64,000 nucleotides of DNA from Phoronis australis (taxonomy: Eukaryota > Animalia > Phoronida). Both the position numbers and the translations under genes were made by a program. Below, one piece after another: positions 48,015-58,430 of the stretch (positions are counted from its first letter, which is position 1; the number at the start of each line of letters is the position of its first letter). The notes under the pieces were generated by a model that did not search any database, had not been told where the DNA came from, and was given only the letters and a program-made list of their open reading frames with translations. Where the stretch lies: NCBI GenBank assembly GCA_002633005.1, contig NMRA01000010.1:427252-491251 (forward strand), written 5' to 3'.

Positions 48015-48648
48015 ATGTTTTGCCATTTACTATCCCTGATCGTGGCCGCAAACATGGTACTTGTGGACACAGGTGAAACGAATCGGAATAAAAGAAGCAA
48101 CATGCGTGCAAGTGCCTTGGAAAGACTTCGAATACACTTAACACGTCTTGAAACGAAAATCGATCAATTTGCTGAACGCTCTAAAGCTGATGTGCAAACT
48201 GTCCAGACGGACATTGTGTCGCAATGTATGAATTACTCCAAACAGGATGCTGACCGCGTAATCGCAGCTGTTGAACGAATTGCTCTGTCCCATGAGGAGA
48301 ACATCACTTCGAGTGTTCAGAAAAATGTTTCAGAAGCCCTGGTTCAAGTGTTGAAGTTGTGGGACGCTCACTTCTGCATGGGTGGATACACTCATTACAA
48401 CTTGTCATGCTACAGACTAGTTCGACAAAATCTGACGTGGGAGGCGGCTGAAAACTACTGTCAATATTCTGGTGCGCATCTGCTCTGGTTTGAAACAGAT
48501 GGAGAACACGAATTTCTGAAGAAACTCCTTAAAAACGAAGGTATGAATGGCAACGATGTTGTCTGGACTGGCGGATTGGACGCCAGTCAGTCACAAAAGT
48601 GGGCGTACCCCCAAGATTCTTCAAACACAACGTTGCTGAAATATTTTG
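48015..48648 (+). CDS. Exon 1: signal peptide, furin-like site, coiled coil and N-terminal half of the C-type lectin domain
   Basis: [56 protein letters not shown]; donor G|GTGAGT at 48649. Confidence 0.9.
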
Positions 48649-51600
48649 GTGAGTTTCTTTGATAAACTTTGATTTTATGGTAAGTTTCACATTTTCTTTT
48701 TCTCTTACAAAATCGCGCAAAGCGCTATTATAGAGGCGCGTAGCGCCTAATGGGGGGAGGTCGGGAAGAGGAGTTTGCCGCCTTCCGCCAAGGGGAAAAT
48801 TTTGTTTTTGCCTCTGAAGACAAAGAAGCACTTTTCTTGATTTCTGAAATATAATAAAAAAACTGAGAATATGTGTGAATATGAAGAATTCGTAAAATTG
48901 CATGAACTAGAACTCACGACCTACTAGTCGGAGCGCGCGTGCTCTTCTATTGCGCCACCTCGGTTCCAATGGAAACACCACACTAAGAAACTTGATCTTT
49001 GACCGTACCGTTTGCGCGCGAACCTGCTTCTTTCCGTAATGTTTATTACACGCTTTATATTTTGTGCAATAAGTTCGTAGAAAAGTTTTTGTGATTAAAG
49101 CAGTCTTAAACTGCTCAAAAGACCAAATTCATTTTTCGTGGTGGCATTAATCACGCGCTTGCTTCGAAAATCGTTTTAATTTTAATGTTTGACAAAGAGA
49201 GAATTATGAGTCTCTCAGTGATTAATTAAGGCTTCAATTAAAATATGAATTTTACCAGCAGCCTCGAGTCTGTTTCTTCCTTGCCTCTCAGCTTCCGTTT
49301 CCTTTGAAAAAAAAATGAAGTAATATTGCACAGTGGAGCCTGGGATATTACGCGCATATCGACCTCGAGTGGCAGCCCATAGGCCTACTTACAAATCCGC
49401 CTACGAAATGAGGTGGCTAGGATCTATGGACAAATGTCCGTGTCTTTTGTGAATATCTATCCAATAAATGCTAACAGCCTCAGCGATTGGTTAAGTCTCA
49501 ATCCGGATATAGGTAACGCATCAACAACACAGTTCACATCCGAAATGATCCGGCGCAATGGTCCGCGGCGTTTTCTGTTGGTCCCAGAACGACTGGGAAG
49601 ATCTTGGGGCTCCAGGAGTCCAACATGTAAGTTTCGGGAACTTCAAAACTGCCGTGTTCGTATGTGACGTTCCGGGGAGATGGCGACATGATCCGGAGTC
49701 GTTCCTGTAGCCGCCGTGTTCATCCGGGGCCAGTGTTCGTGTCCCTTATGTATTGGTCCGTCGTTTTGTAGTGACTGTCCGGAACAGTCCGTGTGGACAC
49801 TGTGTTGATTCCGTGTTTCTGCCATGCTAATTCTGTGTTTTACCGGGTTCGTCCCTATAGTTTTTTGTTTCCACGGGCTAAAAGGAGCACAGATCATCCC
49901 ACTGAAATCTCTGTTTATGATTGCGAGAGTTCTTTGAGTACCCCTTTCGACATGTGCACGGTCATCACAAACAGTAGCCTCGACAGCAGTGTTTTTCACA
50001 TGTGGGAATTCCTTACAAACAACTCATAGTAACAATCTTTAAAAGAGATACTACTCTTGCGATTCTATGGGAAACAGCAACGTTATTTTATAACTAACCA
50101 TCGGAAATAGTCCTTTTGTGAAATTCACAAAAAGTGGTCTTCACATTCTTCAAAATTCCACCCTTTCGATGGCTATCGATTCTATTGTATGTATTTTTCA
50201 CATTTTTTTGGTTGTTTGGATCGAATGTGTCGATACAGCTGTGCTGTACACGAATGTTTTGTGTGTTTTGATGAATTTGGGATCTCAGCTTCCCTCGTGA
50301 ATACTTGGTAGTGTCCGATTTACATGCATAGAGGGACAAAGGGAGATTTTCCCCGAACTGCTCCACGGGGAGAGGGTCCCGTCTGAAATGGGGCACCTCA
50401 AGATGAAAGGTTAAACATCATTAAGCTTGGAAAACAGTGACAGTTCATTCCACCGTTGTGTGGTCACAAGACGTGCAGGAAGTGACCTTCTTCAACATGA
50501 AAGCGGTTGCACGATGTCATAAAAAACAGGAAACTAGAGGTAATCGATTCCAACATTGGTGTCACGATGTGACTTTAGTCAGACAATTCAGTAGAAAAAA
50601 AAAACAAGTTAAAAAAACAATATTTAATTCAACATTAAACACTTACTCACGAACACCAATATGTATCATAACTGGGTCGACTATTGTCCATGGGGCACCC
50701 AAACTAATATTACTGTGTTAGAGTCCAGCTTATCATTTTACACAGTTCGTGCACAGTGCAGCTGTGGTCAGTGCCTTCCTTTCAGCATCCGACTTTGAAC
50801 ACCATCATCTTGCGGTCTCCACTTAGTCCGCTGAATGTCACAAGTCTTCACTGTCTACACAAACGTTCCACTTTCCCTAACAAGCTTCTAGACACGTCTA
50901 CACCGTGTCACTACTGGCTCTCGACTGCCGCACCCAGGTCGGACATTTGAGTGCACCCGGCCAACACAACAGTTCATTTGCATATAAATGTCCCGGCAAC
51001 AATCGCTGAACACTGACGCCGGCGACGTAACAGACTGTGTTCACAACTGTCTATTGTTTACAATTGGGCCCTCTCTTCGTGAGCGGCCCCTTAAGAATTT
51101 GTCAATAAAAACACAAAGCGCGTCCACTTGAATGTAATCAAAGGCCTTCTCAAAGTCCGGGCCCCTAAATATGAAAATGCCTATATTTTCAAAAATAAGG
51201 AAATGCACTACAATGGATGTTATCTGTCTGGTCATCAATTTTTCTCAAGTGACATAGGCGGATTTAGGGGGGGCCCAGGGGGCCCGCCCCCCCCCCCTTG
51301 GCTGCCGCAAAAAATAAAACAGTAAGAGCGTAGGGAAATGGTGAGTTTATTAATTAACCCCGGTAATTAAGATTATACGGATGAAATAAGATTTAAATGT
51401 GTGCAGTTTTAGTGTTGGGGGGGGGGCTCAAACCCAATTTCAAGTGTCAAATTCGGAACACGGCGCGTTCGTGACGGAACTATGGCTAAGTATAGAATCT
51501 CCCGCGATATCCTAGGCGACCGGTAGCGGCGCTGTGCGCTACAACTCCGTTTCCGTCGTCTGCTCCACTGTGCAATGGAGAAAATTTACATTTTTTAAAG

Positions 51601-57600: not shown

Positions 57601-58430
57601 GATCAAGGTAATTTATGTTGTAACTTTTCCACGCATTTTGCACCAAATTAAAAGGCCTATTGTCGCCGATTCCAACTTGAAAACAGGACACACACTCAAC
57701 TGCGGCCCGTATCGGAATCGCGCAGCGTTCACACCTACGACTTCAAAAAGAAATGAACGCAAAGTTACTAATATCAAAAATTTTGTATCTAGCAAACTAA
57801 ACTTTATAATAAACTTTGTGAAATTGCCTGATAACAGTTCGGACGAAGCGTTTTTTTTTTGCCTGCTTCGTGACCCGAGTCATGCACCCGGGGATTCCCA
57901 TACGGGCCGTGTTAGGTGGGTGACATCTCAGGCAGGAACAGGGTCGGTCGGGCGTGTGCGAACAAAAGAAATTCTCGAGATCCGGAATATGCATTAGCGA
58001 GCTGGATAATTTTGTGCCCAGGTGAGCCCGAAAGGACAAGGAAGACTCGTAAAAACTTTTATTTACGATCTTGTCCAGCATTTCGAACACTTTTTGAATG
58101 ATGATTGATCTGGCTTCTCGTCGGCTTGAAGGACAATTAAAACACTAAGACAGATTCGTTGGAAGGTAAAAATCTGATACTCCGGTTGGTGCGAAAATGC
58201 GAAATCATACAGGACTACGCGAAATGTTGCAATAACAAGTCGTTAAAGAATGTGATCACACTACATCTCTTTGTGAGATTCTTAATTACGTCTACGAAAC
58301 TAAACAATTGTTAATTTTCTTTTCAGCTTCAGTTTCTCAGCCAAGCAGTGGCTGTCTAGAGATGACGACCCGAGGCAATTTGTTATCCAAGTCGTGCCAA
58401 CAGAAGAAAAACTTCATATGTAAATATTAA
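48015..58430 (+). CDS. Secreted coiled-coil / C-type lectin-like protein with two SRCR domains inserted inside the CTLD (about 468 aa, 6 exons)
   Basis: Exons: 48015-48648 (signal peptide, RNKR, coiled coil, CTLD N-half), 52927-53077 + 53382-53560 (SRCR1), 55363-55522 + 56198-56376 (SRCR2), 58327-58430 (CTLD C-half [15 protein letters not shown]). All introns are GT-AG with phases 1,2,1,2,1, giving a 1407-nt open frame. Confidence 0.85.
48710..49350 (-). mobile_element. Diverged, truncated, inverted copy of the hAT-like element at 51253-52249
   Basis: Its reverse complement aligns by eye with about 51560-52190, including the tRNA-like module. Confidence 0.75.
51253..52249 (+). mobile_element. 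Non-autonomous hAT-like DNA transposon with 5-bp TSD (hAT5-like)
   Basis: Imperfect TIRs CATAGGCGGATTTAGG / CCTAGATCCGCCACTG; AGTGA duplicated at 51248-51252 and 52250-52254. Confidence 0.7.
52927..53560 (+). CDS. SRCR domain 1 (two exons)
   Basis: [31 protein letters not shown] / [18 protein letters not shown]. Confidence 0.9.
55363..56376 (+). CDS. SRCR domain 2 (two exons)
   Basis: [35 protein letters not shown] / [23 protein letters not shown]. Confidence 0.92.
58327..58430 (+). CDS. Terminal exon: C-terminal half of the C-type lectin domain
   Basis: Acceptor TTTTCTTTTCAG, phase 1; encodes [34 protein letters not shown], the canonical C..C-x7-C (FICK) end of a CTLD. Confidence 0.82.

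Follow-up and report, generated by a model that had tools for sequence, protein, structure and literature searches.

Gene structure and RNA support

The window analysed here is a 64,000-nt stretch of Phoronis australis DNA, and all coordinates are positions in it on the forward strand. It carries a gene of six coding exons (Table 1), in which a C-type lectin domain (CTLD) is begun by exon 1 and completed by exon 6, and two SRCR domains are encoded by exons 2 to 5. The open reading frame over the six exons is 1407 nt long, corresponding to 468 residues plus a stop codon with no internal stop. The five introns all run GT..AG and, by sequence, fall in phases 1, 2, 1, 2 and 1. Intron 1 also carries nested inverted repeats of a transposon-like element.

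The RNA sample comprised about 18-19% of each of three raw-read runs (X2, X3 and X4), plus X1 contigs. All five junctions (5/5) were seen in stranded RNA, with 8, 13, 14, 6 and 8 reads from junction 1 to junction 5. The X2/X3/X4 counts were 4/6/3, 1/0/13 and 0/0/6 for junctions 2, 3 and 4, those of junctions 1 and 5 being given in Table 1, and the first mate lay on the minus strand in all junction reads. The joint of exons 1 and 2 was present in 4/4 runs, and the support for junction 4 came as six reads from one run. Exons 1, 2, 3 and 4 are joined in one X1 contig and exons 5 and 6 in another, and the chain from exon 1 to exon 6 is covered by overlapping pieces rather than by one molecule. Letter differences in the X1 contigs leave the reading frame intact, and the expression of the gene is low. 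Junctions 48648/52927 and 56376/58327, which the initial annotation had set beforehand as a test of its split-domain model, were both found in RNA reads. The six-exon gene with its nested layout is real and expressed.

Table 1. Features of the nested CTLD-SRCR gene in the window
Feature	Positions	Strand	Remarks
Upstream in-frame ATG	47811..47813	+	68 codons 5' of 48015; open frame 47712-48659
Likely core promoter	47927..47968	+	TATA-like hexamer 47927-47932, initiator-like motifs 47957-47968
Exon 1, coding	48015-48648	+	Signal, neck, CTLD first part
Predicted signal peptide	48015..48074	+	aa 1-20; sole strongly hydrophobic segment
RNKR furin-type site	48084..48095	+	aa 24-27, pattern match
Predicted helical coiled-coil neck	48096..48359	+	aa 28-115; unpaired Cys71
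CTLD first part	48369..48648	+	aa 119-211; ends at phase-1 intron
Intron 1	48649..52926	+	Phase 1, 4278 nt; junction reads 1/2/5 (X2/X3/X4) plus contig
Exon 2	52927-53077	+	SRCR1 first half; Pfam SRCR E 3.6e-8; sequon at aa 213
Exon 3	53382-53560	+	179 nt; SRCR1 second half; Pfam SRCR E 2.4e-8
Exon 4	55363-55522	+	SRCR2 first half; Pfam SRCR E 3.5e-12
Exon 5	56198-56376	+	179 nt; SRCR2 second half; Pfam SRCR E 4.5e-6
Intron 5	56377..58326	+	Phase 1, 1950 nt; junction reads 2/2/4 (X2/X3/X4) plus contig
Exon 6, coding	58327-58430	+	CTLD last part to stop
3' untranslated region	58431..59600	+	AATAAA at 58842, 59205, 59278; sense-strand read depth reaches 59600

A CTLD in two parts

The first part of the CTLD contains the C0-C0' pair (C121, C132), C1 (C149), the WTGG motif and the start of the long loop. 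In exon 6, QPS, C2 (C444, 58353), LLS, C3 (C458, 58395), C4 (C466, 58419) and the stop codon follow each other, and P, C, C and C are invariant in the exon 6 alignment. Exon 1 alone matched positions 2-65 of the 107 in the Pfam Lectin_C profile (PF00059) with E 3.7e-8, and exon 6 alone matched positions 76-106 with E 1.3e-3, under the curated cut-off. With a CTLD profile of our own, derived from 248 domains in the database and free of window sequence, exon 1 scored 64.3 bits and exon 6 scored 18.9 bits. When the two exons were joined, they were recognised as a single domain at 85.2 bits over profile positions 31-158, compared with a mean of 64.0 and a maximum of 68.7 bits for exon 1 followed by shuffled exon 6 (n=300). 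The joined halves cover the whole PF00059 domain from the WIGL strand through the terminal FIC strand; C121, C132, C149, C444, C458 and C466 occupy all six conserved CTLD Cys columns, those of the C1-C4 and C2-C3 core pairs and of the C0-C0' pair of long forms, and most of the helix and core positions are retained.

EPN/QPD and WND are the motifs of Ca2+ site 2, according to excerpts of PMC7618208 and PMC6468738. QPS (aa 439-441) and LLS (aa 453-455) stand in their places with the proline alone kept, and the core Trp of WND is exchanged for Leu, which occurs in 3% of the 248 domains. The domain does not qualify as a Ca2+-dependent sugar-binding CRD. The insertion point lies in the β2-β3 long loop, four residues ahead of the EPN/QPD position. 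This loop is described as flexible, variable and semi-independent in an excerpt of PMC7618208, and as swinging outward in snaclecs and missing from compact CTLDs in an excerpt of PMC6468738. The insert between the halves amounts to 223 codons, with linkers of 4 residues before SRCR1 and about 8 after SRCR2. As the initial annotation had proposed, exons 1 and 6 together score as one CTLD, two complete SRCR domains lie in frame between them in the long loop, and the sugar motifs are degenerate with every CTLD cysteine kept. Exon 1 folded without an alignment gave a pLDDT of 38.6; the closure of the halves into one core locked by the C1-C4 disulfide is predicted from the sequence.

The two SRCR domains

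SRCR1 and SRCR2 each matched a profile built from 300 database SRCRs end to end (positions 1-100), at 76.7 and 95.8 bits respectively, and both are complete domains of about 100 residues with paired cysteines, as expected for PF00530. SRCR1 has four Cys, the C2/C7 pair being missing together, and SRCR2 has the six standard Cys, an extra Cys394 and RR in place of the acidic DD. The two domains are 43% identical, share an internal intron and both have a second exon of 179 nt; their identity to the best database SRCRs is 46-49%. PDB matches of SRCR2 exon 4 include SCARA5, DMBT1 and MARCO. Neighbouring SRCRs are packed against each other in a non-linear way, according to an excerpt of PMC4533223. 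Considering that no DNA likeness was found between the introns of the two SRCR cassettes (best E 0.24), their duplication seems to be old.

In SALSA, cation site 1 is buried and formed by D1023 and D1026, and the exposed acidic sites of SALSA/MARCO are site 2 (D1019, D1020, E1086) and site 3 (D1020, D1058, D1059, N1081) (PMC7043408). When these sites were mapped by motif position in the profile rather than by structure, site 1 was D and D in both phoronid domains, site 2 was D, N, N in SRCR1 and D, Y, D in SRCR2, and site 3 was N, T, N, R in SRCR1 and Y, R, R, Y in SRCR2. Neither exposed site is thus conserved in either domain, and site 2 of SRCR1 may survive in part. At the D1058 position, SRCR1 has the same residue as 7 of 579 database domains, and SRCR2 the same as 1 of them. 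The degeneration of the exposed ligand sites weakens the view of these SRCRs as standard binding modules.

Predicted signal and neck, and relation to known proteins

In the hydropathy profile (window 19), the maximum of 1.75 lies at residue 1 and the next region reaches 0.79; the product is likely secreted. It may also be cleaved at RNKR. Heptad a/d positions of the neck are occupied by L35, L38, L42, L45, I49 and F52, and the neck could drive oligomer formation. The 468-residue product has 10 N-glycan sequons, of which the one at aa 434 is created by the exon 5/6 joint, and no Gly-X-Y run was present in its sequence. Class A scavenger receptors combine a membrane anchor, a collagen domain and a terminal SRCR or CTLD (excerpt of PMC5119243), a combination that the phoronid protein does not show. 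It resembles SR-A1, MARCO, SCARA5 and DMBT1 in having SRCRs of the six-cysteine type placed beyond a predicted coiled coil, but has neither collagen nor a clear anchor, its exposed cation sites are degenerate, and its SRCRs are nested, whereas those of the four proteins are terminal or in tandem with other domains.

Perlucin-like lectins (Lingula XP_013399969, Ostrea XP_048749438, Haliotis XP_046375071) have the same signal-neck-CTLD layout and motifs, with about 30% identity to the first part of the phoronid CTLD, and the neck and CTLD layout is similar in the Lingula and Ostrea proteins P0122 and P0125. In contrast, the CTLD of the perlucin-like lectins is unbroken, they mostly carry EPN/QPN-type and W-x-D motifs, and they are without SRCR. 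Snaclecs are comparable in that the sugar motifs are lost and the long loop is reused on a folded core, but there the loop is swapped between subunits and no foreign domain is inserted (excerpt of PMC6468738).

Exon 1 was searched against 1.84 billion representatives and gave 837 matches, of which the best 150 were without exception generic CTLD proteins, 25-39% identical, with 30-39% over the matched part for the best single-domain CTLDs. At E of at most 0.001, none of 1137 candidates in the longer set and none of 189 in the near set was a homologue of exon 1, nor were any of the 78 pattern matches in metagenome contigs homologues. No CTLD part above 12 bits was detected in the best 120 of 1121 SRCR profile matches, and no SRCR in the best 150 of the 837 CTLD proteins (0/150); because both match sets were ranked towards repeat-rich proteins, this absence is weak evidence. 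Atlas searches returned clusters with Lectin_C only or SRCR only. In the searches run, no orthologue, no paralogue and no second case of SRCR within a CTLD was found.

Other CTLDs with nested domains

Among the best 150 of the 837 matches, 10 have a domain inserted in the CTLD (ShK, Methyltransf_FA, FN2 or PAN-like). Five of 15 split records (P0029, P0072, P0102, P0112, P0130) were dropped on account of low-complexity, cysteine-free or retroelement-like inserts, and are probably gene-model errors. In the lymphocyte antigen 75-like protein of Styela clava (XP_039270230; P0092/P0154), a CTLD at 1398-1512 is followed by fn2 at 1512-1554 and by CTLD at 1556-1594. As in the phoronid gene, a whole extracellular module sits within the β2-β3 long loop. 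However, the Styela insert consists of a single module of 43 residues that follows an intact EPD, whereas the phoronid insert precedes a degenerate QPS, and the Styela domain is part of a 2497-aa membrane receptor known as a database prediction only. The Styela model is one CTLD, with pLDDT 74-93 and 83-90 for the halves and Z 14.6-17.9 over model range 1-184. Its alignment was made up of unbroken CTLDs, a bias towards closure, and pLDDT is below 50 in both the loop and the insert. By analogy, this model lends support to the predicted closure of the phoronid halves.

Two ShK domains within a CTLD were found in mannose-receptor-like proteins of Patella (XP_050405448), Ostrea (XP_048752140), Solemya (KAL5010617) and the further molluscs Sinanodonta (KAL3836018), Elysia (RUS84672) and Plakobranchus (GFO24148), Methyltransf_FA in the hemichordates Ptychodera (XP_070535732) and Glandiceps (XP_077993987), and a PAN-like insert, judged by eye, in Owenia (CAH1796015). 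These cases are like the phoronid gene in that whole domains split the CTLD and recur across species, and differ in that the inserts lie in different loops, either ahead of the WIGL strand or past C2, and leave the sugar-site loop whole, the hosts are multi-CTLD receptors, and the cargo is other than SRCR. Judged from these sequences, the phoronid gene is not alone in nesting domains within a CTLD, and the SRCR cargo and the size are the sole unmatched features here. The initial annotation described CTLD and SRCR proteins with their domains in tandem and named no nested case; CTLDs that nest other domains in this manner are already present, unremarked, in public protein records. No description of a nested CTLD was met in the open-access literature searched.

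Proposed origin and function

The FN2 repeats of MMP2 sit within its catalytic domain. They are a class 1-1 insertion by exon shuffling, and class 1-1 modules, SRCR being named among them, enter existing phase-1 introns (excerpt of PMC3927616). The RNA-confirmed introns 1, 3 and 5 of the phoronid gene are all of phase 1, as befits class 1-1 modules. A symmetric phase-1 module in a phase-1 intron is common to both, but here a CTLD acts as host and the insert goes together with the loss of its ligand site. Our preferred reading, to which we assign a probability of roughly 0.7, is one spliced, likely secreted and oligomeric protein in which an SRCR pair interrupts the loop of a sugar-dead CTLD, whose refolded core projects the SRCRs. 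The host would have been an ordinary lectin gene of the signal-neck-CTLD layout, with a phase-1 intron in the long loop that a two-exon class 1-1 SRCR module entered; the module would have been duplicated after entry or come in as a pair. The two CTLD parts would close into a single core locked by disulfides, with the SRCR pair standing out from it, the neck would group several heads, and binding would have moved from the sugar site to SRCR surfaces. With the acidic residues of the exposed cation site degenerate, and basic in SRCR2, such SRCR binding would likely be non-standard and partly charge-based. Of the scaffold role that had been suggested for the CTLD, the placement of the SRCRs in the sugar-site loop holds, and their display as modules with standard sites is weakened. 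Folds under selection would predict the paired loss of C2/C7 in SRCR1 and the site-1 aspartates kept in both domains. An immune or ligand-binding role may be supposed, and we give about even odds to a protein that acts outside the cell in multivalent recognition or agglutination. It is doubtful that the gene should be taken further, as the largest nested-CTLD case, in which the two main recognition domains of invertebrates are combined and the cargo is possibly toggled by exon skipping.

The same architecture and fold are compatible with a structural role in mucus, tube, shell or other extracellular matrix instead of microbe recognition. The nearest simple relatives are annotated as perlucin-like or accessory-gland proteins, the 10 sequons, two spare cysteines and furin-type site would fit a cross-linked matrix protein, and the standard ligand sites are degenerate in all three domains. 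However, those labels are automatic, and excerpts of PMC5119243 and PMC11797021 discuss invertebrate SRCR/CTLD proteins mostly as immune receptors; we regard a structural role as a tentative alternative. It is unlikely that exons 2-5 are a skippable cassette, with splicing switching the head to give an extra 245-aa form with an unbroken, non-sugar-binding CTLD. While exons 1 and 6 are in frame and score as a single domain, and symmetric modules are easily skipped (excerpt of PMC3927616), the exon 1-6 joint was absent among the joints listed, those with at least three reads bar 11 weaker ones, which is weak evidence against it, and the X1 contig continues from exon 1 into exon 2. Pairing of the halves between chains, where exon 6 would complete the CTLD of a neighbour in an oligomer and the SRCR pair would act as a hinge, seems less probable again. 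Swapping at the long loop is known in snaclec dimers (excerpt of PMC6468738), the halves are 223 residues apart and the neck is predicted to oligomerise, but snaclecs swap the loop only and their core strands stay, and the short linkers and the Styela model suit closure within the chain.

Translation from ATG 47811 would give a type II membrane receptor composed of a 68-residue tail, an anchor, a neck and a head, a layout likened to class A scavenger receptors or group II lectins, with which the frame open from 47712 and the neck with its C-terminal head agree. Against this, the X1 contig starts at 47974, the X4 sense depth was 0.32 over 47600-48000 versus 10.1 over 48001-48401, and the hydrophobic stretch is short. 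The TATA- and initiator-like motifs, called by consensus, also lie 3' of this ATG. With both the TATA-like motif and the first position of the RNA contig downstream of it, the ATG is probably outside the transcript, and a type II receptor is very unlikely. We consider it highly improbable that the insertion broke the CTLD, leaving its halves as relics in a protein of a neck and two SRCRs: identity to known CTLDs is low and the WND core Trp is gone, but the Cys and most helix and core positions are kept, and free cysteines would impede secretion. An artefact, with SRCR exons of another gene or exon 1 joining a different CTLD end, is barely credible even though false nesting occurs in databases (the five junk-like records above), given that every junction is in RNA and that a six-frame search of the window gave no rival CTLD C-terminal exon of similar score (E 0.2 for the next best).

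Significance

Among the recognition domains of invertebrates, CTLD and SRCR have expanded the most, and surveys count them by linear domain scans. Such scans read the nested CTLD as two fragments, as the initial annotation had thought probable; exon 6 alone is below the Pfam cut-off. A nested hybrid is likely to be miscounted or split in repertoire surveys. The gene does not so far demonstrate a new mechanism, as the insertion of symmetric modules inside domains is already established. Taken with the database cases, it suggests a recurrent design that has gone undescribed, and existing invertebrate proteomes can be screened for such cases straight away. The gene bears on ligand change in CTLDs and on their use as scaffolds, in that the sugar-site loop can take 223 residues of folded cargo with the core cysteines retained.

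Transcript evidence for a CTLD interrupted by SRCR domains

All five introns of the six-exon gene are of the GT..AG type, in phases 1, 2, 1, 2 and 1, and the spliced frame encodes 468 residues and a stop. Assembled contigs (X1, RNA status guessed) and three raw-read RNA runs carrying the same species label (X2, X3 and X4) were examined, about 18-19% of each raw run being read for junction counts. Reads in X2/X3/X4 numbered 1/2/5, 4/6/3, 1/0/13, 0/0/6 (one run only) and 2/2/4 for junctions 1 to 5; both junctions claimed by the initial annotation, 48648/52927 and 56376/58327, are thus present in RNA as the first and last of these. 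The first mate of every junction read lies on the minus strand, as expected for plus-strand RNA in most stranded libraries. An X1 contig of 1143 nt covers exons 1-2-3-4 and a second covers exons 5-6, with letter differences that change codons 322 and 450, are silent at 448 and leave the frame intact. By these junction reads and contigs, the SRCR exons are part of the CTLD gene, which is real and expressed. The chain from exon 1 to exon 6 was pieced together from contigs and junction reads, none of which spans the whole gene, and no joint skipping from exon 1 to exon 6 was found among the joints listed (at least 3 reads each, X1-X4).

Features of the gene and its surroundings in the window
Feature	Position	Strand	Evidence
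Exon 1	48015-48648	+	Pfam single-exon: Lectin_C positions 2-65, E 3.7e-8
Exon 2	52927-53077	+	SRCR half, Pfam
Exon 3	53382-53560	+	SRCR half, Pfam
Exon 4	55363-55522	+	SRCR half, Pfam
Exon 5	56198-56376	+	SRCR half, Pfam
Exon 6 (coding part)	58327-58430	+	Pfam Lectin_C positions 76-106, E 1.3e-3, under curated cut-off
Nested inverted repeats, intron 1	48906-49339 vs 51562-51998		73% over 447 nt
Outer inverted-repeat pair, intron 1	48720/52135 (region 48720-52178)		44 nt
FAP206 (CFAP206) exon, convergent neighbour gene	63349-63651; gene runs downstream to about 60000	-	E 7e-34
TRIM-NHL-type protein, single ORF	34787-36469	+	RING, B-box, NHL
C2H2 zinc-finger array, about ten fingers	13439-14830	-	
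Broken retroelement-like fragments	42511-45311, 28757-29185		Weak gag zinc-knuckle match, E 0.0015; remainder by eye

The two halves of the CTLD

A CTLD profile made from 248 database CTLDs, with the window sequence excluded, gave 64.3 bits for exon 1, 18.9 bits for exon 6 and, for their join, 85.2 bits as a single domain, whereas exon 1 with shuffled exon 6 averaged 64.0 and reached at most 68.7 bits (300 trials). The join therefore scores as a full CTLD, as had been predicted, and the six frames of the window contain no rival CTLD end exon of comparable score (next best E 0.2). A cysteine of the protein occupies each of the six conserved cysteine positions. The break falls after F211, at the conserved loop Trp position, and before S-V-S-QPS; alignments place it in the β2-β3 long loop, four residues upstream of the EPN/QPD position, which agrees with the location first proposed for the SRCR domains. 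Long-loop aromatics are conservatively replaced (W196 kept, Y198, F211), the exact register varying between aligners.

The alignment also bears out the degraded sugar motifs, with QPS at the EPN/QPD position and LLS at the WND position. Because these motifs form Ca2+ site 2 of CTLDs (PMC7618208, PMC6468738), the protein is very unlikely to bind sugars in the standard way. A folded core plausibly remains, since the same papers describe the long loop as flexible and semi-independent: it swings outward in snaclecs, and compact CTLDs lack it. Judged from its sequence, the protein is a CTLD by fold signature yet not a sugar-binding lectin.

The SRCR cargo

Exons 2-5 contribute 669 nt (223 codons). 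A profile made from 300 database SRCR domains matches both domains from first to last position (SRCR1, 76.7 bits; SRCR2, 95.8 bits), so that two complete in-frame SRCR domains lie between the halves, as initially annotated. They are 43% identical and share an internal phase-2 intron, and their second exons are both 179 nt; no similarity was found between the introns of the two cassettes. SRCR1 lacks C2 and C7, both members of one pair. Relative to the SALSA cation sites described in PMC7043408, both domains retain the buried site-1 aspartates. At the exposed ligand sites, SRCR1 has D,N,N / N,T,N,R and SRCR2 has D,Y,D / Y,R,R,Y. Among 579 database SRCR domains, a set in which the selection pattern fixes the C2 column, 1 carries Arg where SALSA has D1058. 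SRCR2 is basic (pI 8.7). Both domains look folded and are predicted not to be standard cation-bridging binders. Of the proposal that the CTLD is a scaffold displaying SRCR domains, the nested layout on one frame stands, but the degenerate exposed ligand sites speak against its simplest version.

N-terminus and neck

The protein has a single, N-terminal hydrophobic segment and an RNKR site. Its neck is rich in heptads and contains one unpaired cysteine, Cys71; of ten N-glycan sequons in the protein, three (204, 213, 434) sit at insertion joints. In layout, the host part matches simple lectins with a neck and a CTLD that are known from Lingula and molluscs. Translation could instead start at an in-frame ATG at 47811, giving a type II membrane form; however, the RNA contig begins downstream of it, at 47974, sense read depth drops upstream of the contig start, and motifs at 47927-47968, which we take from consensus to be TATA- and initiator-like, also lie downstream.

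Other split CTLDs

No orthologue was found in homologue searches. A CTLD part occurred in 0 of 120 SRCR matches listed and an SRCR in 0 of 150 CTLD matches listed, both sets favouring repeat-rich proteins. Among the 150 listed CTLD proteins (888 full-length CTLD matches), 15 split CTLDs were found, 14 by rule and P0023 separately. Recognisable modules lie inside the CTLD in ten, all database gene predictions; among such records the nested arrangement is not without parallel, where the initial annotation had named no other case. The other five were left out, as they look like gene-model errors.

ShK pairs split the CTLD in six molluscs, and Methyltransf_FA adjoining a PAN domain is nested in two hemichordate receptors (P0023, 802-1092; P0054, 828-1081), one each from Ptychodera (XP_070535732) and Glandiceps (XP_077993987). 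Both nestings are argued to be real because they recur across genera. The mollusc proteins (P0005, P0031, P0045, P0055, P0088, P0094; bivalves and gastropods) are mannose-receptor-like, with two ShK before the WIGL strand, and no description of them was found in the literature searched. The first CTLD of Owenia P0016 (CAH1796015) holds an 81-residue, six-cysteine insert (128-210) between C2 and the WND strand, PAN-like by eye and with no Pfam match at 1e-4. Styela clava XP_039270230 (lymphocyte antigen 75-like) carries FN2 in the long loop, as here, alone among the ten; the other nine use other loops.

The open-access literature searched yielded no description of a nested CTLD, though supplementary domain tables of repertoire studies may include some, nor did passages of PMC7618208, PMC6468738, PMC514892, PMC5119243, PMC11797021, PMC7043408, PMC3927616, PMC2659687 and PMC4533223. 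The nested design recurs elsewhere and its proposed insertion route is textbook; an SRCR insert, or one of this size, turned up neither among the listed database matches nor in the literature searched.

Proposed origin and folding

Nested order in one spliced frame, phase-1 flanks, lost sugar motifs and retained cysteines are established for the gene. A class 1-1 SRCR module would have entered a phase-1 intron of a CTLD gene, the usual route for such modules (PMC3927616), and then been duplicated. The two halves would close into one CTLD, the neck would drive oligomerisation, and binding would be relocated to SRCR surfaces. As the linkers between the CTLD halves and the SRCR pair are short and consecutive SRCR domains pack non-linearly (PMC4533223), the pair could loop out of the CTLD and come back. 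Exon 1 modelled alone gave a pLDDT of 38.6. In a model of the Styela analogue (184-residue CTLD with FN2 in the long loop, 7 sequences), the halves reached pLDDT 74-93 and 83-90, the loop and insert stayed below 50, and whole CTLDs aligned over residues 1-184 (Z 14.6-17.9). This model backs closure of a split CTLD by analogy only, because the alignment used favours that outcome.

Surrounding sequence

Introns and neighbouring genes (TRIM-NHL, C2H2 zinc finger, FAP206) mark the window as coming from an animal genome of invertebrate type. Against the window, X1 contigs over 58327-59308 (exon 6 and 3′ region) show 28 letter differences and 22 gap positions and may represent a divergent allele or close paralogue; the exon 1-4 contig is near-identical to the window, and the depths differ (70 vs 46). 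The inverted repeats of intron 1 look like remains of a non-autonomous DNA transposon. Deep reads on both strands cover 51209-52411 of this intron, and a piece recurs at 36869-36976. X2 and X3 carry antisense reads over 58026-58827, which may be repeat-derived or read-through of the FAP206 gene.
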